DNA from: an uncultured archaeon
GTDB lineage: Archaea; Asgardarchaeota; Lokiarchaeia; Sigyniarchaeales; SOKP01
Length of the DNA stretch: 64,000 nucleotides
Assembly: GCA_964486045.1 (NCBI GenBank)
Contig: CAZALK010000020.1
Coordinates: 16,985 to 80,984 of the forward strand
Reading direction: 5' to 3'
The position numbers and the translations under genes were made by a program. Below, one piece after another: positions 30,340 through 56,857 of the stretch (positions are counted from its first letter, which is position 1; each line of letters opens with the position of its first letter). Below the pieces are notes generated by a model, which saw only the letters and a program-made list of their open reading frames with translations, did not search any database and was not told the origin of the DNA.

Positions 30340-31806
30340 CTAAATATAAGTATGGATTAACTCCAGCAGATTTTTTGAGAAATCTGGTAAGTTTTTCTCT
30401 ATTTTTTTAATTTCAAGAGATTTTTCAATAAACATTAGTAAATATAAGTTATATTTTTCAACTTGGATTTTTTTAAAAACAACTTTCTTAGAGTCGTCAG
30501 CAATTCCGGTGGATACTAAAAAATCTTGTTTCAATACTTTGAATTCCTTAAAGGTTTTATACAAGGTTTGAAAGTGAGGTGCTGAGATTTCAAAAACCCT
30601 GTCAGATATCTCAGATTTTGAAAAATTGGATAATATTATTCCATTTTCGTTAAGTAATAAAATTGCGTCTGAATTCGTTTTTCTTGCGAATTGCTTCAAT
30701 TGATTTCTGAATAATTCTCGATTAGGACTTAACTGAGAAAGTCCATATGAATAAGCAGTAATAAGACTCCAATGGTCGAAAATACTAGTTTGGAATATTT
30801 TAGTTAAAAATCGATCAGATCTCTTTTCTACCTCATCAGCAATAATTTCTAAATTTTTAAATATTTCTTTTGAACCCTTCAGATCAGGATCGAATTTATT
30901 TAAACACACAACTATGGGCGGAAATTCATCTAATTCGACTAATATTTTCGAAATTCTTTGGAAAAGATTTAATGCTTCTTCAATTCTCTCTACATCTTGT
31001 ATATCAATAAAGAAGAAAATTAGATCAACATTATATAAATAGACTTGACTTTGCTCAAGAAATCTTTCTAAATATTTTTTTTGGCCACCTATATCCCATA
31101 GAGAGATTAACGAGTTCTGTTCTTCAAATATATTCTCTTCTGTTCTTTCAACACCTTTAGTAGGTAATGATTTGATAATTTCTGAATATTTCTTTCTGAT
31201 TCCATAAAGAAAACTTGATTTACCAGCCTTATCTAATCCTGTCAATAATATTTTAATTTGTCTTTTTGGAGAAAAAGGATCTTTTAATTCTTTTGTAAAC
31301 TCGAATAGTTCTTCTCTAATATCATCCATTATTCGTTTCTGGTCATTAAATTCTTTTACATTCTGAATTTGTGTAGCTGTTTTATCGATTATAATCCTTA
31401 AATATTTCATATTTTCATAAAAAAAAACCTTATCTTCTTCGTCAATTAATACAGTTATTGTCGCAGCTAGTGCTTGACCGCGTGCTTTTTCATCAGGGAT
31501 AAGAAAAAAATAAGTTAAGCCATTCAATTTTAAATCAGGAAAAGGAAGAATTCCAAAGTAGTTAACTCCTATGTCTGATCCCTGAGAATTTTGATAAACT
31601 GAATCACCCATAAGCAAACTAATAGTTTTCATAGCTATTAGAAGTCCTGATTTCTCTTCTAGGTTAGAAGGCCATATTATTCTAGGTGTTGGGCCTTTTT
31701 CATCAAAAATACTTAAAACAACCGCTTTTATTAGATTGGATTTTTTGTCACCTGTATCGTTTCCTTTCATCTTCTTCTTATTCGAATTTGAGTCGGTTTT
31801 TGCCAA
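30340..31806 (-). CDS. three-domain GTPase: N-terminal longin-like domain + Rag/Gtr-like G domain + C-terminal roadblock-like domain
   Basis: 488 aa. The N-domain covers about aa 25-145 (LIKAVVLSIFDEKGPTPRIIWP...ILPFPDLKLNGLTYFFLI). G1 is LLTGLDKAGKSS, G3 is WDIGGQ, G4 is NKFD and G5 is QTSIFDHWSLITAYS..LSP (as in Rag TSIWD...LIP). About 125 aa of alpha/beta C-domain follow. It ends in TAG. Confidence 0.7.
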   Translation of the reverse strand: MAKTDSNSNKKKMKGNDTGDKKSNLIKAVVLSIFDEKGPTPRIIWPSNLEEKSGLLIAMKTISLLMGDSVYQNSQGSDIGVNYFGILPFPDLKLNGLTYFFLIPDEKARGQALAATITVLIDEEDKVFFYENMKYLRIIIDKTATQIQNVKEFNDQKRIMDDIREELFEFTKELKDPFSPKRQIKILLTGLDKAGKSSFLYGIRKKYSEIIKSLPTKGVERTEENIFEEQNSLISLWDIGGQKKYLERFLEQSQVYLYNVDLIFFFIDIQDVERIEEALNLFQRISKILVELDEFPPIVVCLNKFDPDLKGSKEIFKNLEIIADEVEKRSDRFLTKIFQTSIFDHWSLITAYSYGLSQLSPNRELFRNQLKQFARKTNSDAILLLNENGIILSNFSKSEISDRVFEISAPHFQTLYKTFKEFKVLKQDFLVSTGIADDSKKVVFKKIQVEKYNLYLLMFIEKSLEIKKIEKNLPDFSKNLLELIHTYI

Positions 31807-34868: not shown

Positions 34869-35954
34869 TTATTTTTTTAATCCTAAATAATGTTTTACTT
34901 GTTTTTTTATAAGATTCATAGCAATAGAAATAATACCACTCTTAACTTGAGGATGTGAAAACAGTATTAAAATCATATCTTTAAGACTCGAAGTTTCTAG
35001 ATCAAGAAATGCCATATCTAAAACTCCCTCAGTACCTCTCACTGATATCGATCTTAAAGCTCCAGCACTTAAACCATCGATGATATCCGCACTTATCATT
35101 GAAAGATTTATCCCTATTGTACCAAATAAGGATTCCGATATTCTACTTGAAATAGCTGACGCTAACATTGTCCCATCTGTTTTTATGATTGCTGATGCCT
35201 CAATTTTTGAATCTAAAGTTATCAATTCTTTTAATATCTCATTCATCGAAGCTGGTGGTAATTTATTTTTTGGTTCTTTCTGAGAAGTTGATTTAGGTTC
35301 TTTTAGTTTTATTTTATTTACGATAATTTTCTTTGATAGAAAACCAAGAACCTCCGACATGTCTTTCTCTAGTTTCTTCTGTTTTATAATAGCAAGATCT
35401 GAGTCTACAGTTTTAAGGGGGAGCGGAGTTGTAGATGGTTTAGGTTTCTTAATTTCAACTTCGAGAACAGATTTTTTAAGTTCTTTTAGTGCATCTGAGA
35501 TAACTCCATTAGATTTAGGGATGAGAGAAATGAATTCTTTTTTGTCTGAGAGAATAGTACCTTTAAATGGTTTCGGGGTTATTTCTTGTAATATTGGGGG
35601 GGTTTTTTCTTCTAAATTGTGTTTCGTTTCTAGAGGTATTTCTGTAAGGGAATCCGATTCAATTTCTTCATTATCTTCTATTGGAATATCACCAAGCTTT
35701 GAAAAATCACTTAGTTTCTCTTCTTCTATCGGTATCTCATGTAATTCTAATTCTTCTGGTTCTAGATCTTCCGGTACTTTAGGTTCTTCTATTATTTGAG
35801 TAATAGGAACTTTTTTTGCTTTTTCTTCTTTAACGGTTTTAGGTTTTTTAGGTCTAGAGGTTCTAGTAGAAATTGGTAGTAATGCCCCACATGTTCTACA
35901 GATACGAGTTTTTTTCTCATTATTTGTTGTCCCACAGTTATTACAAATTATTAT
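34869..35954 (-). CDS. zinc-ribbon + acidic linker + Roadblock/LC7 (MglB/LAMTOR-like) domain protein
   Basis: The track gives only 34869..35360 (the roadblock part: ASAIIKTDGTMLASAIS...ISVRGTEGVLDMAFL). The frame stays open upstream to the TAA at 35960..35958, which I checked codon by codon. That extension encodes ICNNCGTTNNEKKTRICRTCG (CxxC..CxxC) plus an E/P/K-rich linker. No ATG/GTG/TTG lies in the extension; an ATA at 35954..35952 is 8 nt after GGGGGAG. Confidence 0.65.
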   Translation of the reverse strand: MIICNNCGTTNNEKKTRICRTCGALLPISTRTSRPKKPKTVKEEKAKKVPITQIIEEPKVPEDLEPEELELHEIPIEEEKLSDFSKLGDIPIEDNEEIESDSLTEIPLETKHNLEEKTPPILQEITPKPFKGTILSDKKEFISLIPKSNGVISDALKELKKSVLEVEIKKPKPSTTPLPLKTVDSDLAIIKQKKLEKDMSEVLGFLSKKIIVNKIKLKEPKSTSQKEPKNKLPPASMNEILKELITLDSKIEASAIIKTDGTMLASAISSRISESLFGTIGINLSMISADIIDGLSAGALRSISVRGTEGVLDMAFLDLETSSLKDMILILFSHPQVKSGIISIAMNLIKKQVKHYLGLKK

Positions 35955-36190: not shown

Positions 36191-37165
36191 TTATTTATAG
36201 AGGATCTCTTTCAATATTTTTGCGAAAGCTTCAAAGTCTTCTTTGTTAAAAACAGGATTATCTTTTAATAGAAGTAAGTAATAGGGTGTGGACTCTTTTC
36301 GTAACGAAATCTGTTTAAACATGAAATTTTTCCCATATCTTTGTACAATCATTCTTTCCTCGTACTTTTTCTCCAAAACGCTTGTGGATTGAAAGGAATC
36401 ATGAAGAGTGAGAAAATATGGGGTTGAAGCGGTGAGTAGGTGCCGAGTCTCATCATCCTTATAATAAGATCCAATTATTAGTGAATTGTCGTCAATTACT
36501 ACTACCCCACCGGAATCTACCTTTTTAGCAAATTCTACAATTGTTTTTTCAATTAATTCAGATTTTGGATAGAGACTTAAAAGGATTTCAGACATGGCTG
36601 CTATTATTGATGAGAATTCATAAATGGAGGTTTCATAGAAATAAATTTCCTTATAATCTGTAGCGTTTCTTATTAGTTCCTTTAAATCTATTATAAGATT
36701 TTCCATTTCATTTAAGGCACCCCTCTTTAAAGCAGGATCATATTTATGAAGGAAAACATAGATTGGTGGTTCAATTTCCAATTTGTTAAACTGCTCAATA
36801 ACATCTTTAAAATAACTTATTGCTTCAGGTATTCGCGGTTTATTCTGGATATCAATAACATAGATGGCAATTTCAGTTCCATCAAAGTATTTATTTGGCT
36901 TTTTTAAATAGGAGATCCTATAGCTAACCTGCCCGCCTAAATCCCATTCACTTATCTCTTTTCCTAGAAAATCGAATATTCTCCTTTGCGCTCCTCTCGT
37001 AGGAGATAATACAGCAATTTTTGAGAATTCTCTTTGGAGAGATAAAATTATGCTTGTCTTGCCTGCATCATCTAGCCCCGTAAATAAAATCTTTGAAGAT
37101 TCGGGTTCAGCTTCTAGATCATCTTTTTTTAAATACAAGATTGATTGTTTAAGATTTTTCTCCAT
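36191..37165 (-). CDS. Rag/Gtr-like small GTPase (G domain + C-terminal roadblock-like domain)
   Basis: 324 aa. G1 is ILFTGLDDAGKTS, G3 is EWDLGGQ, G4 is FLHKYD (His-Lys-x-Asp as in RagA HKMD) and G5 is YETSIYEFSSIIAAMSEILLSLYP (compare RagA [21 protein letters not shown]). A roughly 125-aa C-domain follows (VVVIDDNSLIIGSY...). Confidence 0.75.
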   Translation of the reverse strand: MEKNLKQSILYLKKDDLEAEPESSKILFTGLDDAGKTSIILSLQREFSKIAVLSPTRGAQRRIFDFLGKEISEWDLGGQVSYRISYLKKPNKYFDGTEIAIYVIDIQNKPRIPEAISYFKDVIEQFNKLEIEPPIYVFLHKYDPALKRGALNEMENLIIDLKELIRNATDYKEIYFYETSIYEFSSIIAAMSEILLSLYPKSELIEKTIVEFAKKVDSGGVVVIDDNSLIIGSYYKDDETRHLLTASTPYFLTLHDSFQSTSVLEKKYEERMIVQRYGKNFMFKQISLRKESTPYYLLLLKDNPVFNKEDFEAFAKILKEILYK

Positions 37166-41257: not shown

Positions 41258-41749
41258 CTAATTCGTTATGAGAAATAATTCTTTTTCATCACAAATCATT
41301 CTAATTTCATTTACTATCTCATTTTTTGTAGTTCCTTCAGAAAATTCAATTTTAAGTTTTACATTACTAACTTCTTCAAATTCCGTAAAAACTGCATGCA
41401 ATTCTAGCACTCTAATACTTTTAGAAGCCAATCTTTGTAATGTATCTAGAATATCTGTACCAAAAACATGTCCAGTTAAGAGAACAATTATACCCTTTCT
41501 TTCTATCCCATAACTAACATTCTCAATTTGAATATTCTTTTCTTTTAACTCCAATTTAATATTTTGCATACTTATTTCTTTTATATCTTCAATCAGCTCA
41601 AAATTGATATTGACAGGTATCATATTATTTATCTTCCTATCATGGAAGTGCAATATGCCATAAATGTTCCCCCCATTCTGCGAAATTGGCTTTATTAATT
41701 CTATTAAACTTCCTGGAGTATCAGGGATCTTTACTTCTAAATTTATCAT
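41258..41749 (-). CDS. ACT-domain (amino-acid-binding) regulatory protein
   Basis: 163 aa. LEVKIPDTPGSLIELIKPIS has the beta-alpha-beta ACT signature, and a second ACT-like half is present. It lies directly upstream of hom and ends in TAG. Confidence 0.65.
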   Translation of the reverse strand: MINLEVKIPDTPGSLIELIKPISQNGGNIYGILHFHDRKINNMIPVNINFELIEDIKEISMQNIKLELKEKNIQIENVSYGIERKGIIVLLTGHVFGTDILDTLQRLASKSIRVLELHAVFTEFEEVSNVKLKIEFSEGTTKNEIVNEIRMICDEKELFLITN

Positions 41750-41804: not shown

Positions 41805-42767
41805 TTAAAATCTAATAACTTCTACAGATTCAGTTCCATCGTTTATCTTCAAAAGATTTGGATCATTAATAATTTTACCTATTAAATTCGCATCTAACCC
41901 ATATTCTTGAAAAATCTGTATCAATTCATTTGTTTTATGTACTGGAGCAGTTAATATGAATGAAGTAGTGAGATACATTTGAATAAATGTTTGTAGATCA
42001 TAATTTTCATCTAATAATACTGGTGGTATTTTGATTTTTGTAATATCCACATTAGCACCTACATTTGAATATTTTACCATTTGTAATATCGTTCCAAAAA
42101 TTCCGCCATTAGATACATCCTTTGATGAGTTAGCTAAATTCTTTTTTGCAATAGCATTCATAGCTTTTCTTTTCTGTAATACATGTTCAGATAATTTAAA
42201 AGTAGTTGTGTCATAATAAAGATTACTTGCTGTGCTTACTCTTCCATCAAAATCAACAGCTAAGATTATATCATCTCCTACTTGGGCGTTTCCAGCAGAG
42301 ATATAATCTTCCTTCTGAATTTCACCAATCATGGTAGAACTTAATTCATAACATTTCCCATGTATATTTGTATGACCTCTTATAATTGGAACTCTAAATT
42401 TATTAGATCCCTCACATATCCCCTTTAGAATTTCTTCACATGATTCAGGATCCTTTACAGAAATTATTATACTTGCTGCGAGTGGGGTACCACCACATGC
42501 ATAAATATCATCAACACTGACTAAAATAGAACTATACCCTGCTCCGCGCCCAAAATTCTCGATAAAAGATGTTTTTATCCTATCGGTTGTTACAAGTATA
42601 TATTTTTCGTTATTTTTTATCGCTGCCGCGTCTTCTCCGATGTCTAAATAGATATCTGTACTTTTAAAAGAATTTTTATCAATATACTGAATTATCGGGG
42701 TAATTTCTTTCTTTTCAATAATATTTTTATTGGTTTTAATGGTTTCAGCAATCTTTTTAAGTATCAT
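41805..42767 (-). CDS. AIR-synthase-related (PurM/ThiL/HypE superfamily) protein
   Basis: DIGEDAAAI...LVTTDRI is the N-domain motif of the PurM superfamily. The 320-aa length is compatible with it. The subfamily is not resolved. Confidence 0.6.
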   Translation of the reverse strand: MILKKIAETIKTNKNIIEKKEITPIIQYIDKNSFKSTDIYLDIGEDAAAIKNNEKYILVTTDRIKTSFIENFGRGAGYSSILVSVDDIYACGGTPLAASIIISVKDPESCEEILKGICEGSNKFRVPIIRGHTNIHGKCYELSSTMIGEIQKEDYISAGNAQVGDDIILAVDFDGRVSTASNLYYDTTTFKLSEHVLQKRKAMNAIAKKNLANSSKDVSNGGIFGTILQMVKYSNVGANVDITKIKIPPVLLDENYDLQTFIQMYLTTSFILTAPVHKTNELIQIFQEYGLDANLIGKIINDPNLLKINDGTESVEVIRF

Positions 42768-42862
42768 TTATGAAATTAATATAAAGTTATTAATAATTAA
42801 TTTTTCTTAATTTACCTAAGGAAATTTAAAATTTATAATATAAACAAAAATTATTTTATACA

Positions 42863-44362
42863 ATGGAAAGATTATTTGAATCTTCGCTAATTAAAGGATT
42901 TATATTTAGTGCCTACGGGGAACTAGGACCACAACCCGTTTATACATGGCCTAATTATTATACCGAAAAAGAAATAAAACAAATTAAAACTGAAGAAAAG
43001 AAATCTCTAATTTTATCATTAAGGGATGTCACTCAAATCTCAATAAAGAATCTCAGCTTATTTATAAGTGACAGAGAATTCTCACAAGAAAAAGACTTCC
43101 AAAATCTAAGATATTTCGCTATTTTACCCTATCCTGATTTTAAAGCAACATCTCTCACTTATTTTCATTATATTGAAAATGGTACTTTTGACCTACCTGT
43201 CGCCACCGCATTTTCAATATTAGTTGAGGAATATAGAAGAAGTTTCTTATACAATAATATAAACAGAATTAAACCGATAGTATCTGAATTCTTTACTCGG
43301 TTTGATCAAAAATTACTTGAGAATTATCCTCCTAAAGAAGAAATAGAAGAATTTTTTATTGAGTTGTTTAAACAGCTTAATGAGATTGAAAAAAATCCAT
43401 CAACCCCGATCACCTCTCACCGAAAATTAAAACTTATTTTTGCAGGTTTAGATGATTCTGGTAAAACCAGCTTCCTTTTAAGTGTTGATCGTAAATATAG
43501 TAAACTTATTGGGTTAAAACCAACTACAGGAGCGAGTATCAAATCAATTGAAGCTCTAGGTGCTACAATCTTTTTGTGGGACTTAGGTGGCCAGTTGAAA
43601 TTTCGAAGAAAGTATATAGATAAGGCTGAGATTTACTTATATGAAGCTGATTTAATTTTCTATTTTATTGACGTAAGAAATGAAAGTAGATTTGAAGAAA
43701 GCATAGAATATCTTCTTAGCATAAAAAAAGTATTAGGAGATTTTAAACAAAATACTCCAATTGTCTACATATTATCAAAAGGAGATTCTGATATTATAAA
43801 TACAGGAGAAATCAAAAATAATATTGAAAATGTGAAGAAAAAACTATTTGAAATTACTCCTAAAGAATCCCCTGAATTATATGTCACCAGTATCTTTCAA
43901 ATTTTTACAATTCTAAGGGCATTTTCTTCTGGAATTTCAAAATTAAGCCCTAATAGAAATTTAATAAATCATAACCTTAGAAATTTCTCTCTTAAAACAA
44001 AGGCTTTTTTAACATTACTCTTAAGTGAAGATGGTTTAGTTTTAGCAGACTTCTATTCCTCAAAAGCAAAGAAACTAACAAAGATTCCCAAATCTGAGGA
44101 ACTCATAAATGTTTTTGAGGTAACTGCACCTCAATTTGCCATGCTATTTAAAATCTTCTCAAGATTCAAAGCTTTAAAAGAAGAAGAAGCGATATTTAAA
44201 GTGTCTGATTCTGTAATCCTTTTTAAAAGGATCAAAGTTGTTGAGGAAAACATGTTCATTCTATTTCTGGTTGATAATGAGAAAAGAAAGGAAAAAATCA
44301 ACATTAAATTGCCCGTTTTCTTAGAGCAAACAAAAGAGTTATTGTTAAGATATATTGCATAA
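42863..44362 (+). CDS. three-domain GTPase: N-terminal longin-like domain + Rag/Gtr-like G domain + C-terminal roadblock-like domain (paralog of 30340..31806)
   Basis: 499 aa. The N-domain reads LIKGFIFSAYGELGPQPVYTWP...ILPYPDFKATSLTYFHYI. G1 is LIFAGLDDSGKTS, G3 is WDLGGQ, G4 is LSKGD and G5 is VTSIFQIFTILRAFSSGISKLSP. The C-domain reads LTLLLSEDGLVLADF.... Confidence 0.7.
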   Translation: MERLFESSLIKGFIFSAYGELGPQPVYTWPNYYTEKEIKQIKTEEKKSLILSLRDVTQISIKNLSLFISDREFSQEKDFQNLRYFAILPYPDFKATSLTYFHYIENGTFDLPVATAFSILVEEYRRSFLYNNINRIKPIVSEFFTRFDQKLLENYPPKEEIEEFFIELFKQLNEIEKNPSTPITSHRKLKLIFAGLDDSGKTSFLLSVDRKYSKLIGLKPTTGASIKSIEALGATIFLWDLGGQLKFRRKYIDKAEIYLYEADLIFYFIDVRNESRFEESIEYLLSIKKVLGDFKQNTPIVYILSKGDSDIINTGEIKNNIENVKKKLFEITPKESPELYVTSIFQIFTILRAFSSGISKLSPNRNLINHNLRNFSLKTKAFLTLLLSEDGLVLADFYSSKAKKLTKIPKSEELINVFEVTAPQFAMLFKIFSRFKALKEEEAIFKVSDSVILFKRIKVVEENMFILFLVDNEKRKEKINIKLPVFLEQTKELLLRYIA

Positions 44363-44381
44363 GTGCATTAATATACACACT

Positions 44382-45284
44382 TTAAAATAAAACTTTTAAA
44401 GGATTACTTTTTGAAATCTCTTTTTTTAAAACTCTTTTCCTATAATAGGAATTGACCCCAGAGATCAGAGCAACCGCAGGTACCACACATTTTGCGAACT
44501 TAAGTGGACCAAATAAAATGAAATCGCTTGGTGCACATGCACAATATACCATGATAGAGGCTATACTACCACATCGTGCAACCTCTCCATATTTCTTTAT
44601 AAAATCCCAACCATAAATCACATTAGCAGGAGCACATCCTGTAGGTAATCCAAACTTATTTTTTACTAAATGAGATGTCTCAAAATTTATTGAAATTGAT
44701 GGTAGATCTAACACTGCTGAATCGACCAAAATATTTTCAATTTTTGCCTTCAATGCTTTTGGAATTAATATTTCTTCTAATAATTTTAATTTCTGCATAG
44801 GAAAAAGATATCTTCTCCCAAAAGTTAACAAAATTGCGTTTCTGACCCCGATATTTTTTAATCTTTCAAGGTTTTCCTCGGTTGTCGCTTCATCTATACT
44901 GTTTAAAATAGCTCGATCAAGCAATCCTATTTCTTTTAATCCTTCCATTGCAGGAATACGAGAAAAATCAGTTAACCCATCAACCAAAAAAGGATAATCA
45001 ACAATATCAGCTACAAATTCACACTCTTTTATGAGTGCTTTAGGGTATGCACCAACGACATCAATTATTCCCTGCATTTTTGTGTCTTCAATAATTTCAG
45101 TAAATTCATTTAATTCGTTTTCAACGAGTAGTTTATCTATTTCACCGGTTTTCTCATTTAATAGCGCATCGTGATTCCCGTAAAAAACAGTACCGATCAT
45201 CGCAATAGGGTTTTGGCCAGGATTTCCCCCAATTCGATTCTTCCCTATTTGCAATACTTTCTGTTCGGTTTCGAAATTTAGCAT
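44382..45284 (-). CDS. mtrH: MtrH-family corrinoid:tetrahydromethanopterin/THF methyltransferase
   Basis: The N-terminus FETEQKVLQIGKNRIGGNPGQNPIAMIGTVFY matches the conserved MtrH start (F-x-x-EQ-x-V-x-x-I-G-x-x-x-I-GG-x-PGE-x-P-T-x-x-x-G-T-I-FY). The length is 300 aa. Confidence 0.8.
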   Translation of the reverse strand: MLNFETEQKVLQIGKNRIGGNPGQNPIAMIGTVFYGNHDALLNEKTGEIDKLLVENELNEFTEIIEDTKMQGIIDVVGAYPKALIKECEFVADIVDYPFLVDGLTDFSRIPAMEGLKEIGLLDRAILNSIDEATTEENLERLKNIGVRNAILLTFGRRYLFPMQKLKLLEEILIPKALKAKIENILVDSAVLDLPSISINFETSHLVKNKFGLPTGCAPANVIYGWDFIKKYGEVARCGSIASIMVYCACAPSDFILFGPLKFAKCVVPAVALISGVNSYYRKRVLKKEISKSNPLKVLF

Positions 45285-45358: not shown

Positions 45359-46231
45359 TTATACTTTATTTTCTGCAAATGGTTTATCCAACATTAGTAA
45401 TTTAATAAAATTCGACACTTTATCATCGGGAATTATCAAGAATTTTCCTTTTATAGAATAACCATGAGCTTTTGCCCATGGATTCATTTTTTCAGAATAA
45501 GTCTTTTTATCCATCCGTAACACCTTTCTGATTAAATTTAACTCAACTTTTTTTAATTTAGTGACAATTTCCTTTATTTTTTTCTTTCTATTATTCTTTA
45601 CTGGCTCTCCCACCAAGGTTCCAACATATATAATGCTAATTATAAACTCGGGAATATACCGATGCATTAGAAGGACAATAATCGCAGCAATAAACGAGCT
45701 TGCGGCACTGATCGAGAAGTGAATATCTACCCAAGCATATCCAATATTATATAATTGAATTTGAATCAACATTCGGATAATATTGACAACATAAAAAATA
45801 ATTGATGAAATAATAAGAGCTTTAGTTTTTCTCCAAACTACATCCCTTTTTGTTTCCCTATCTTGGCTATGTGGCGTGAAAACAATCACACCTACAAAGA
45901 TGACAATTGCCTGAACGCCTGTACAAAATGTCTCAAAATAAATGGATGATTTCCCAGGAATATTAAATTTCCAATGATACAATGGTCCTGGTTCATGAAC
46001 AGCTGTAGCATTCATATTAAAAAAAAGATTTAGAAAATAAACTGTTTGCTTAACTGTAATTTCGTGTAACCAGTAATTCATCTCTAAATCGAAAAACAGA
46101 TAAACCAAATAAGCAGAAATGGGTGCACCTATAGCTAATAAAATCAGAGATCTTATTGAAAAGATATATTTCTTTTCATTAAATTCGATTATTGGCTTTT
46201 TAAAATTCATTAATTCTTTAAACTTCTGCAT
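45359..46231 (-). CDS. archaeosortase/exosortase-family membrane protein with soluble C-terminal extension
   Basis: Multi-pass membrane protein with ordered Cys...Arg...His candidates: ETFCTGVQAIV, VVNIIRMLIQ and VDIHFSISAAS. An extra charged C-terminal region of about 85 aa is present. Confidence 0.5.
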   Translation of the reverse strand: MQKFKELMNFKKPIIEFNEKKYIFSIRSLILLAIGAPISAYLVYLFFDLEMNYWLHEITVKQTVYFLNLFFNMNATAVHEPGPLYHWKFNIPGKSSIYFETFCTGVQAIVIFVGVIVFTPHSQDRETKRDVVWRKTKALIISSIIFYVVNIIRMLIQIQLYNIGYAWVDIHFSISAASSFIAAIIVLLMHRYIPEFIISIIYVGTLVGEPVKNNRKKKIKEIVTKLKKVELNLIRKVLRMDKKTYSEKMNPWAKAHGYSIKGKFLIIPDDKVSNFIKLLMLDKPFAENKV

Positions 46232-53439: not shown

Positions 53440-54492
53440 TTGAAAACCATGGAAAGACAAATAATTAAAGCTGTAGTATACAGTAATTTAGATGAAGAAT
53501 TGGGTCCCGATCCTAAAGCTTTTACACCTGATAATTTTCCTCTAGTAAATTTAATGCTTATTAGTATGAAAACCTTTGCCGTTCTTACTGGTGAGAAAGG
53601 ATTTATACCGGAGTCACTAGTTATTCTTCCGTTTCCATCACTTAAACTAAAGGGTTTAATTAAGTATATTAATTGGGAGGACCCAAAGAAACGAGGGGGT
53701 TTTGGCCAATCTAATATTGCGATATTTTTCCAAGAAATGGATGATGCAATTTTTTATAAGTATTTAAAGGAACTCTCAGCTCCGTTTAACGATGTAGCCC
53801 AAAACATCGCATTTTTAGAAAAATCTAATGCTCCTAAGGAAGATTATATTAATGAGTTAATAAATCTTCAAAATGCATTAACCGAAATTTTAGAAGAATT
53901 AAGAAGCATAGAGCTTTCGAAGTCAAACGTTGAGTCGTTGGAAGGGAGAATTAAGGATAGGAATTTGATAGATTTTCAATTTAAAATTATTCTTGTAGGG
54001 GATCCAACGGTAGGAAAAACAAGTCTAATTCTAAGATATACTGATAATGCTTTTAGGCGAGCATATGTTTCAACTATGGGTGTTCATGTTTCAAATAAAA
54101 TATTTAAAGCTGAAGATTCTGCGATTATCCAGCTTGTTTTATGGGACATAGGAGGTCAAGAAAGATTTAAAATAATGAGGCAACAGTTTTATCAAGGATC
54201 TGATGCAGTATTTATAATTTTTGACCTTACTAATCCCGATTCATTTAGAGGTGTGCCTAATTGGTATTCAGATATACAAAAACTATTAAAATTAAATAAA
54301 GAAGATACTCTAGGTTTCCTAGTTGGAAATAAGAGGGATTTAGATAAGGACATAAAAATAAAATCTGAAGAGGCTCAAAATCTGGCCGAACAGTTCAATT
54401 TAGAATATCTTGAAACTTCAGCACTCTCAGGAGAAAACGTTTATGCCGTTTTCAGCAATATCGCCAATTTACTCTATGAATCGAGAAAATAA
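53440..54492 (+). CDS. N-terminal longin-like domain + Rab/Ras-like small GTPase
   Basis: 350 aa. The N-domain IIKAVVYSNLDEELGPDPKAF...LVILPFPSLKLKGLIKYI belongs to the same family as the N-domains of the Rag-like proteins. G1 is LVGDPTVGKTS and switch I is YVSTMGV. G3 is WDIGGQERF, G4 is GNKRDL and G5 is ETSALSG. The probable start is the ATG at 53449. Confidence 0.75.
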   Translation: MKTMERQIIKAVVYSNLDEELGPDPKAFTPDNFPLVNLMLISMKTFAVLTGEKGFIPESLVILPFPSLKLKGLIKYINWEDPKKRGGFGQSNIAIFFQEMDDAIFYKYLKELSAPFNDVAQNIAFLEKSNAPKEDYINELINLQNALTEILEELRSIELSKSNVESLEGRIKDRNLIDFQFKIILVGDPTVGKTSLILRYTDNAFRRAYVSTMGVHVSNKIFKAEDSAIIQLVLWDIGGQERFKIMRQQFYQGSDAVFIIFDLTNPDSFRGVPNWYSDIQKLLKLNKEDTLGFLVGNKRDLDKDIKIKSEEAQNLAEQFNLEYLETSALSGENVYAVFSNIANLLYESRK

Positions 54493-55807: not shown

Positions 55808-56857
55808 ATGATGAAAGAGATTATTAAATCTATTGTCTACACCTCAATGGATGAGAGGTTAGGACCGAGTCCGCATTTATGGTTGCCATTAGATTTACCC
55901 GAAGATATTCGAATGGGAGTAAGCATAAAATCAATTACGATGCTTACAACAGATCAAGGAATTATCCCTAAATCATTAGTAATCATGCCCTTCCCTTCTT
56001 TTGGACAAAAAGGATTGATAAAATATATTGAACGTGCAGATGATTCTCGCCGCGGAGGTATAGCATTATCATCAATTACACTATTATTTGATGAAGCCGA
56101 TGATCTTATTTTCTATAAATACTTGGATTACCTTGAAACTGCGTTTTCTAAAAGCGCCCAGAAAATTATTGAATTAGAAAATCAGAATGCAGAAAGCGTT
56201 GAGATTTATGCAGAGATAAATATCCTTCGAAAAAACCTCACAGAAATTTTAAATGATTTACAAAACAAAGAAAAATCAATTATTGAAGGAAAGGCGTTTC
56301 CTAAAGAAGAAACTGATAAAGAGTTAGTTGGATTTCATTCCAAAATTATTGTATGTGGAGATCCATCTGTAGGTAAAACCAGTACTATCCTACGATTTAC
56401 TGATAACGCTTTCATCCGTACTTATATCCCTACTTTAGGTGTAAGTATTTCTGAGAAAACTATCAAAATAAAAGAAGAGTATGTGAATTTAATCTTTTGG
56501 GATATAGCTGGACAAAGTAAATTTGAAATGATGAGGAGACATTTTTATCAAGGTGCAGAAGCGGTAATTGTTATATTTGATCTAACAAATCGTAAGTCAT
56601 TTGAAAGTGTTTCAGGTTGGTATAAGGACATAAAGAGGTACATCGAAATCTACCAAAACACTTTAATAGGGTTTGTTTTAGGAAATAAAGAGGATTTAGT
56701 TGGTGAGAGGAAAGTTTCAACTGCAGAGGCTAGTAGTGTAGCCAAAAGTCTAAACATTGGATACGTCGAGACTTCAGCTAAGACTGGTAAAAATGTTGAA
56801 CAGTTATTTTATAGAATAGCAGATTCTTTATTAAAAACAAAAAAAAAAAATGATTAA
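55808..56857 (+). CDS. N-terminal longin-like domain + Rab/Ras-like small GTPase (paralog of 53440..54492)
   Basis: 349 aa. The N-domain reads IIKSIVYTSMDERLGPSPHLW...LVIMPFPSFGQKGLIKYI. G1 is VCGDPSVGKTS and switch I is YIPTLGV. G3 is WDIAGQSKF, G4 is GNKEDL and G5 is ETSAKTGKNV. There is no C-terminal Cys (no prenylation motif). Confidence 0.75.
   Translation: MMKEIIKSIVYTSMDERLGPSPHLWLPLDLPEDIRMGVSIKSITMLTTDQGIIPKSLVIMPFPSFGQKGLIKYIERADDSRRGGIALSSITLLFDEADDLIFYKYLDYLETAFSKSAQKIIELENQNAESVEIYAEINILRKNLTEILNDLQNKEKSIIEGKAFPKEETDKELVGFHSKIIVCGDPSVGKTSTILRFTDNAFIRTYIPTLGVSISEKTIKIKEEYVNLIFWDIAGQSKFEMMRRHFYQGAEAVIVIFDLTNRKSFESVSGWYKDIKRYIEIYQNTLIGFVLGNKEDLVGERKVSTAEASSVAKSLNIGYVETSAKTGKNVEQLFYRIADSLLKTKKKND

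Follow-up and report, generated by a model that had tools for sequence, protein, structure and literature searches.

The DNA analysed here, hereafter the window, is a 64,000-nt stretch from the genome of an uncultured archaeon of the class Lokiarchaeia (contig CAZALK010000020.1, positions 16,985 to 80,984) that encodes three Rag-like small GTPases, which we denote RagL1 (42863..44362, + strand), RagL2 (30340..31806, - strand) and RagL3 (36191..37165, - strand). RagL1, the main subject of this analysis, is a single open reading frame (ORF) with an ATG start that encodes a protein of 499 aa in which a longin domain, a G domain and a roadblock domain follow one another. RagL2 (488 aa, TTG start) has the same three-domain layout, and RagL3 (324 aa) consists of the G domain and the roadblock domain only, with no N-domain. 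The key finding concerns the longin domains: those of both RagL1 and RagL2 are of the type found in the longin-containing GTPase-activating proteins (GAPs), and the arginine of the catalytic finger is present in RagL2 and absent in RagL1. The features of RagL1 described below are all given in window coordinates on the + strand.

The assignment of RagL1 to the Rag/Gtr family comes from sequence and structure comparisons. Its best Pfam match is Gtr1_RagA (PF04670; 66.8 bits, E 2.5e-18), which covers aa 190-410 of the protein and positions 1-224 of the 232 in the model; RagL2 and RagL3 score 88.6 and 86.7 bits, respectively, and Arf is the second family in all three. Given that these scores are well above the gathering cut-off of 22 bits, the match is not due to chance. 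Among the PDB sequences, RagL1 matches 8YL2 (E 3.8e-25) and 8ZLA (E 2e-15), and also RagA and Gtr1. The full-length AlphaFold2 (AF2) model, built from 71 sequences (mean predicted local distance difference test score, pLDDT, 80; predicted template modelling score, pTM, 0.63), consists of three domains: the longin domain (aa 1-177; 42863..43393), the Arf/Rag-like G domain (aa 188-360; 43424..43942) and the roadblock domain (aa 365-498; 43955..44356; topology α-ββ-α-βββ-α). When the whole model was compared to the PDB with Foldseek, the top match was 8YL2 (E 2.6e-18), followed by human RagA and RagC and yeast Gtr1 and Gtr2, with alignments of 294-345 columns, long enough for the G domain and the C-terminal domain (CTD) together, and template modelling (TM) scores of ~0.7, normalised by the target. 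When the last 210 aa of RagL1 were aligned to human RagA with phmmer, the aligned part (RagA 160-250) encompassed the Rag-type G5 and the interdomain linker (TSIF...KLSPN...NLRNF; 43886..43987), in which TSIF and LSPN line up with TSIW and LIPN of RagA, and NLRNF is identical; in RagL1, TSIF occupies aa 342-345 and KLSP aa 360-363. The roadblock domain of RagL1 includes an 11-aa segment, S399-P409 (44057..44089), that is absent in RagL2 and RagL3 and contains the sequence LTKIPKSE, conserved in the consensus of the RagL1 orthogroup; because this segment aligns to human RagA without a gap, the two paralogs carry a deletion here, a length difference that the initial annotation had not noted. The longin-like, Rag-like and roadblock-like identity of the protein and its Rag-like G5, both proposed in the initial annotation, are thus upheld.

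The public annotation of RagL1-type proteins, 'ADP-ribosylation factor-like protein', implies a different affiliation, namely, an Arf-like or SR-beta-like GTPase rather than a Rag. GLDxxGKT in the P-loop and WDxGGQ are indeed Arf-type motifs, and RagL1 scores past the cut-offs of both Arf (56.3 bits) and SRPRB (27.1 bits). Nevertheless, the Gtr1_RagA score is higher and that match reaches into the CTD, RagA can be aligned over both the TSI-F/LSPN/NLRNF linker and the roadblock CTD, and all top structural matches are Rag/Gtr proteins over ~300 columns. Nor does RagL1 have the Arf-family layout, in which a lone G domain is accompanied by an N-terminal amphipathic helix and an interswitch toggle: a 187-aa longin domain plus linker precedes the G domain, leaving no Arf-style N-terminal segment, and a roadblock domain follows it. 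We consider an Arf or SR-beta affiliation highly improbable; it is close to certain that RagL1 belongs, as a functional protein, to the Asgard Rag/Gtr ('RagGtr') family and has the longin/G/roadblock architecture. The asgardarchaeote RagGtr are an established group, with the eukaryotic Rags nested inside it (Vargova et al.), and the longin/G/roadblock layout is included among the 74 small GTPases of 'Candidatus Prometheoarchaeum syntrophicum' MK-D1 in the accessible part of Tran et al. 2024. Both the protein type and its architecture have therefore already been described for Asgard archaea, and RagL1 is not a new protein type.

The motifs of the G domain were examined in an alignment of 71 sequences that includes both paralogs (A2). 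Invariant in this alignment are G195, L196, G200 and K201 of the G1/P-loop GLDDSGKT (aa 195-202; 43445..43468), P220, T221 and G223 of the switch I/G2 motif PTTG (43520..43531), W239, D240, G242, G243 and Q244 of the G3/switch II motif WDLGGQ (aa 239-244; 43577..43594), and K306 and D308 of the G4 motif SKGD (S305-D308; 43775..43786). Switch I (aa 213-234) is a low-confidence stretch of the AF2 model. The conservation of orthologs was assessed in the best 120 full-length database clusters for RagL1 (~500 aa, 58-91% identity), in 119 of which WDLGGQ is retained. As judged from K201/T202, T221, DLGGQ with Q244, K306/D308 and TSI, the nucleotide-binding elements of RagL1 are intact and under purifying selection.

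G4 is the motif in which RagL1 departs from the eukaryotic proteins. The HKxD form is typical of eukaryotic Rags; within the motif, the Asp sets the guanine specificity, the Lys stacks on the base, and the first position is tolerant, as in the GTPases of the signal recognition particle (SRP) type, which use TKxD. RagL1 lacks the HKxD form, a feature that is typical but not defining, as the position varies in the archaeal family: among the 50%-identity representatives of the longin/G/roadblock proteins, the first residue is S in 7, H in 5, T in 3, N and D in 2 each, and V in 1. Within the RagL1 orthogroup, by contrast with this variation across the family, SKGD is found in 112 of the 120 clusters, the remainder being SKAD (3), SKSD (2), TKGD (1) and two without a match to the search pattern, so that the first residue is Ser in 117. 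The G4 of RagL2 itself is NKFD, and the 120 orthologs of RagL2 include NKFD (95), HKFD (13), TKFD (5) and SKFD (2); RagL3 has HKYD. With Lys and Asp invariant and the first position tolerant, SKGD is, on this distribution, a conserved variant fixed in the RagL1 orthogroup rather than a product of decay. The initial annotation had correctly listed G1, G3, G5 and SKGD and had called this G4 'degenerate', a description that does not hold given that only its first residue differs. An altered nucleotide specificity caused by the Ser, which the same annotation had raised, was rejected: a nucleotide switch is not supported when the Lys and Asp are invariant and Ser is the commonest state of a residue that floats across the family. 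RagL1 would then switch between GTP and GDP with the usual specificity for guanine. The alternative that the change in G4 made RagL1 a pseudo-GTPase or switched its preference to XTP or ATP draws on the presence of Ser in place of Asn or His at the first position, and is very unlikely considering that the specificity Asp and the stacking Lys are both retained, that all the remaining catalytic motifs are intact, and that this position takes other residues elsewhere, Thr in the SRP-type GTPases and His in LokiRagO (PDB 8YL2) and RagL3.

The N-terminal domain was modelled separately with AF2 from 27 sequences (pLDDT 88, pTM 0.86) and has the longin topology ββ-α-βββ-αα. Its top Foldseek match in the PDB is 8YQG (E 5.6e-7, TM 0.64/0.73), described there as the dimeric longin domain of a Lokiarchaeal 'Roadblock-Longin protein'. 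After 8YQG, and apart from LOV/PAS look-alikes, the matches are exclusively chains of longin-GAP complexes: GATOR1, FLCN-FNIP2 (6ULG chain N, FLCN itself being chain L in this entry), the Lst4 longin, SEAC, including 8adl_S, which is Npr2, and C9orf72-SMCR8. None of the top 50 matches is a longin of the SNARE, adaptor-sigma, SRX or TRAPP kind. The β1-β2 loop contains a GP motif, G22-P23 (42926..42931), that is invariant in an alignment of 27 N-domains (A3; 8 of the RagL2 type and 19 of the RagL1 type, with 28-30% identity between the RagL1 and RagL2 domains), hence in both longin-bearing orthogroups, and is present in 68 of the 70 family representatives that cover this column. The GP motif is specific to the GAP longins FLCN, NPRL2, SMCR8 and C9orf72 and to the stand-alone Asgard longins of the FLCN/SMCR8 type (PMC12290439). 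In the PDB sequences, FLCN has ELHGPRTLF, with R164 in SLARGFQRW, and NPRL2 has FSEFHPTLGPKITYQVP, with R78 in KKYSRNALL; the GP of NPRL2 is G20-P21, in the same place as G22-P23 of RagL1. Sequence similarity to FLCN itself is marginal: the Pfam family Folliculin is matched by 8 of the 27 N-domains (best E 2.3e-4) and by full-length RagL2 (E 0.0017), in each case below the gathering score, and the N-domain of RagL1 does not match this family. Fold and GP motif place the fused longin of RagL1 among the 'GAP longins' of the FLCN/NPRL2/SMCR8 type, although the Arg finger is missing. The DENN or NPRL-specific C-domain is not present in RagL1, and its place is taken by the G and roadblock domains.

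The N-domains of the RagL1 orthogroup are further distinguished by an insert between β2 and α1 (I38-D55; 42974..43027), opposite a 21-column gap in all RagL2-orthogroup rows of A3. The insert noticed in the initial annotation is thus real, with the size of roughly 25 aa given there to be corrected to 18 aa in RagL1; most of the orthologs have 20-21 aa, and pLDDT drops to 61-68 over aa 41-50.

In a HMMER search that covered all of 1.84 billion cluster representatives, only 128 relatives of this N-domain were found, and these fall into three groups. The first consists of longin/G/roadblock proteins, 9 with and 13 without the finger Arg; the second, of ~350-aa longin-GTPases with a Ras/Rab-like GDPxVGKT P-loop, of which 19 of 21 have the Arg; and the third, of shorter proteins that lack a P-loop and could be either fragments or longins that stand alone. 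The window contains two members of the second group, encoded at 53440..54492 (+; 350 aa) and 55808..56857 (+; 349 aa). The N-domains of these two small GTPases, ~185 aa each, are homologous to the longin of RagL1 (E 5e-12 and 3.8e-11 with the hidden Markov model of A3) and have an Arg at the finger column (KKR-GG and SRR-GG), and their G domains are Ras/Rab-like (GDPxVGKT, NKED), with no roadblock tail. All told, the 64-kb window encodes five small GTPases, including four fusions of a GAP-type longin with a GTPase.

The difference between RagL1 and RagL2 is located in the β4-β5 loop. In RagL2, this loop reads A108-R109-G110, and 'ARG' is found in 118 of its 120 orthologs; in a single BLASTP comparison (E 0.001), this A-R-G is aligned to A163-R164-G165 of FLCN. 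In RagL1, the corresponding loop, E105-V113 (43175..43201), has F109 in the Arg-finger column of A3, the loop is variable, and none of the conserved positions in it is an Arg across the 120 RagL1 orthologs. The same asymmetry is observed in a genome in which the RagL1 ortholog is 58% identical. Given that the Arg is retained in 19 of the 21 longin-GTPase representatives, its presence is probably the ancestral state, with a loss on the branch leading to RagL1. A combination of one Arg-bearing and one Arg-less partner is characteristic of the FLCN/FNIP, NPRL2/NPRL3 and SMCR8/C9orf72 heteromers (PMC12290439). What is new here is the assignment of the fused longin to the GAP type, along with the presence of the Arg in the RagL2 orthogroup and its absence in the RagL1 orthogroup.

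The three paralogs diverged long ago. The mean identity over the G and roadblock domains is 37.5% for RagL1 and RagL2, which are each other's closest paralogs, 27.5% for RagL1 and RagL3, and 30.1% for RagL2 and RagL3, compared to at least 62%, 76% and 75% within the RagL1, RagL2 and RagL3 orthogroups, respectively. At 27-38% between the paralogs against at least 62% within the orthogroups, the duplications are old by this measure, in agreement with the initial description of the paralogs as diverged and at odds with the recent lineage-specific duplication that had been named there as the finding that would tell against pairing. RagL3 is the ortholog of LokiRagO (phmmer E 7.5e-88 over aa 10-319). 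At least 120 full-length ortholog clusters were found for each of the two orthogroups searched, RagL1 and RagL2, and in at least 18 cases a single contig encodes orthologs of both (16 cluster pairs, recognised by equal lengths of the longest contig, and two contigs found via loci L004 and L007). Paired orthologs are available from loci L001-L013 and L016. In addition to the GP motif and R109, RagL2 has a Lys-rich low-complexity N-terminal extension, MAKTDSNSNKKKMKGNDTGDKK (31741..31806, - strand), that makes up its first ~22 aa, before the longin; it is present in most of the orthologs with variable sequence, is absent in RagL1, and may be a polybasic tail that binds the membrane or a partner.

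Gene order around the three paralogs is conserved in related loci. Twelve related loci from metagenome-assembled genomes (MAGs) are collinear with the window over ~25 kb, from RagL3 through the pyruvate phosphate dikinase (PPDK) gene. Synteny as a sign of functional linkage was largely rejected, given that the entire neighbourhood is collinear in these related loci and that the complete genome CP070831.1 has no Rag-like gene in the 10 kb upstream of its RagL1 ortholog. The locus designated L013, where the RagL1 ortholog is 58% identical, has been rearranged: it lacks the intervening NrdD, threonine synthase and homoserine dehydrogenase genes, and the trio lies within 8.5 kb with its signatures preserved (GP, 'TARGN' and NKCD in RagL2; HKYD in RagL3; SKGD and no loop Arg in RagL1). 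Only the persistence of the trio in this locus carries a little weight for linkage.

These observations suggest a mechanism in which RagL1 is a Rag-family switch with RagL2 as its favoured partner, an explanation that, as a whole, we rate just below an even call. RagL1 would dimerise via the roadblock domain, as the structurally characterised Rags do, and probably also via the longin, as in 8YQG and FLCN-FNIP. After the duplication, one sister, RagL2, would have kept the catalytic Arg, and the other, RagL1, would have lost it, so that the two could form an asymmetric pair in which the catalytic arginine comes from RagL2 only. Such a complex would unite the equivalent of a Rag heterodimer and that of a longin GAP pair like FLCN-FNIP or SMCR8-C9orf72 in the same two polypeptides, and its two G domains could hydrolyse GTP at different rates and hold different nucleotide states. 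The match between the Arg asymmetry and the pattern in FLCN/FNIP, NPRL2/NPRL3 and SMCR8/C9orf72 favours a RagL1:RagL2 heterodimer; RagL2 is favoured as the partner by its closer relationship to RagL1, the shared architecture and the complementary Arg-finger status. Of the two partners that the initial annotation had put forward for a Rag-type heterodimer, RagL2 and RagL3, it is thus RagL2 for which such a complex is plausible. Roadblock-mediated dimers of Rag-like proteins have been predicted in MK-D1, according to the accessible part of Tran et al. 2024. We regard the putative pairing as a serious though tentative possibility, and an obligate asymmetric heterodimer, which would make the pair a prokaryotic 'Rag plus its GAP' module complete in itself, as rather unlikely.

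Several observations speak against this scenario. A distance of 11 kb separates the RagL1 and RagL2 genes, which lie on different strands and do not form an operon; their co-location could be plain synteny among related genomes; and CP070831.1 has no Rag-like gene within 10 kb upstream of its RagL1 ortholog. Two arginines, R126 and R135, are nearly invariant among the sequences of the RagL1 orthogroup in A2 and could provide an alternative finger. The sequence similarity between the N-domain of RagL2 and FLCN is weak (the sub-gathering Pfam matches and E 0.001 for one pairwise comparison), the search of the PDB sequences with the A3 profile returned only noise (E 0.6 or worse), and hhalign of A3 with a single FLCN sequence gave a 5-column non-match, so that the link to FLCN comes from the fold search, the motifs, the sub-threshold Pfam matches and one weak pairwise alignment. 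The GAP function of the fused longin is putative for the Asgard proteins. Finally, there is no heterodimer among the Lokiarchaeal relatives with solved structures, of which 8YL2 is a homotetramer and 8ZLA/9M28 a monomer.

The last point, together with the gene arrangement, fits an alternative under which RagL1, of the same family and architecture, forms a homodimer or homo-oligomer like LokiRagO and has no dedicated Rag-like partner; the loss of the Arg would then signify slow intrinsic hydrolysis or reliance on a separate, stand-alone GAP. That 8YL2, the closest relative with a solved structure, is titled a homotetramer and 8YQG is a dimer of a single longin domain, that homodimers have been modelled for longin-bearing Rag-like architectures (in the accessible part of Tran et al.), that the RagL1 and RagL2 genes are not operonic, that the 10 kb upstream of the RagL1 ortholog in CP070831.1 are devoid of Rag-like genes, and that many N-domain relatives without a P-loop, some of them fragments, may be stand-alone longins all agree with this view. 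What it leaves unaccounted for is the loss of the Arg in one sister combined with its strict retention in the other, the known heteromer pattern, and the co-conservation of the RagL1 and RagL2 orthogroups; we consider it nearly as likely as the RagL1:RagL2 heterodimer. A pairing of RagL1 with RagL3 through the roadblock domains, analogous to that of RagA/B with RagC/D, is improbable by comparison. RagL3 has the roadblock CTD and an HKYD G4 resembling the HKFD of LokiRagO, lies 5.7 kb from RagL1 and remains in its vicinity not only in 11 of the 12 related loci but also in two that are more distant. As the ortholog of a protein deposited as a homotetramer, as the paralog most distant from RagL1 and as a protein with no longin, which would leave half of the putative interface unpaired, RagL3 is nonetheless an unlikely partner. 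The asymmetric RagL1:RagL2 pair remains the reading that we prefer.

LokiRagO (8YL2, a homotetramer with GTP) and LokiRagM (8ZLA/9M28, a monomer) belong to the same family and share the G and roadblock domains with RagL1, to which their matches are limited; no longin is seen in either, the G4 motifs are HKFD and HKID, respectively, as opposed to SKGD, and neither solved chain is orthologous to RagL1. We found no paper describing 8YL2, 8ZLA, LokiRagO/LokiRagM or 8YQG, and the oligomeric states of 8YL2 and 8ZLA are given as in the PDB titles only, for 8YL2 'homo tetrameric RagA-like small GTPase from Asgard Lokiarchaeota, LokiRagO'. The MK-D1 longin-GTPase-roadblock proteins (Tran et al.) have a domain order identical to that of RagL1 and come from the same class of organisms, and the accessible part of the literature on them reports no GAP-type longin class, Arg-finger asymmetry or SKGD signature. 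Eukaryotic RagA/B-RagC/D and yeast Gtr1-Gtr2 resemble RagL1 in the G domain, the roadblock CTD and the G5/linker motifs, as well as in having at least two diverged paralogs per genome, and differ from it in the lack of a fused longin and in the P-loop, which in RagL1 is the Arf-like GLDxxGKT, whereas RagA has its own sequence. With the longin GAP complexes FLCN-FNIP2, GATOR1 (NPRL2-NPRL3) and C9orf72-SMCR8, RagL1 shares the N-domain fold and the GP in the β1-β2 loop, and the combination of an Arg-bearing and an Arg-less paralog in SMCR8/C9orf72 resembles RagL2/RagL1. Unlike these complexes and the stand-alone Asgard FLCN/SMCR8 longins (PMC12290439), the longin of RagL1 is fused to a Rag-like GTPase, and RagL1 lacks both the Arg finger and the DENN/NPRL C-domain. 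The bacterial MglA-MglB system, as far as the accessible part of the literature describes it, follows the shared principle of a roadblock/longin dimer serving as a platform that regulates a small GTPase, although in this case the polypeptides are separate, the G domain belongs to another subfamily, and there is no longin.

Amino-acid sensing in eukaryotes is centred on the Rag GTPases and their longin-domain GAPs, GATOR1 and folliculin, and the Asgard precursors of this machinery are under study with a view to its origin. In this context, SKxD is a normal, selected state of G4 in the archaeal longin/Rag-like family, the longin fused to the Rag-like GTPases is of the GAP type, and the very residue that sets two long-diverged sister paralogs apart is the catalytic arginine, a difference that provides the previously vague idea of a heterodimer with a named partner, RagL2, and a residue, R109. 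The client GTPases of the GP-motif longins have been left open (PMC12290439). Should the 'Rag plus its GAP' module prove real, it would link these longins directly to Rag/Gtr GTPases as clients, a further link, to Ras/Rab-like GTPases, would come from the products of 53440..54492 and 55808..56857, and the one-sided Arg-finger asymmetry would predate eukaryotes. Genes of the Ragulator or TORC1 type are not present in the annotated neighbourhood of RagL1, where no search aimed at such partners was made, and no homolog of the phosphatidylinositol 3-kinase (PI3K)-like TOR kinase is found in Asgard archaea, according to the accessible part of Liu et al.

In the window, which has a G+C content of ~30%, RagL1 is monocistronic, flanked by a divergent AIRS-like gene (41805..42767, - strand) and a convergent gene for an MtrH-family methyltransferase (44382..45284, - strand; Pfam E 9.4e-53). 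The gap between RagL1 and the MtrH-like gene is 19 bp; in the loci L013, L015 and L016, the two overlap by 4 nt in the stop region. The AIRS-like/RagL1/MtrH-like triplet is widely conserved (loci L001-L017), and the RagL1-MtrH adjacency is retained in CP070831.1 despite different upstream genes. There is no obvious functional link of RagL1 to either neighbour, and no other mtr subunit genes were detected among the scanned neighbours of the MtrH-family gene. The RagL1 gene occurs in marine-sediment metagenomes, and its nearest relatives come from MAGs labelled Promethearchaeota or Lokiarchaeia. A weak candidate for a TATA-like box, TTTATAAT (42832..42839), is located 24 nt before the ATG, with a very AT-rich spacer; this assignment is based on the nucleotide sequence only. 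Four ORFs in the window that gave no Pfam match at E <= 0.001 have counterparts at equivalent positions in the related MAG loci: those for a 290-aa protein (45359..46231, - strand), a 146-aa protein (35359..35799, + strand) and two 163-aa proteins (34869..35360 and 41258..41749, both on the - strand), the latter with a counterpart in L016 that is tagged ACT_10.

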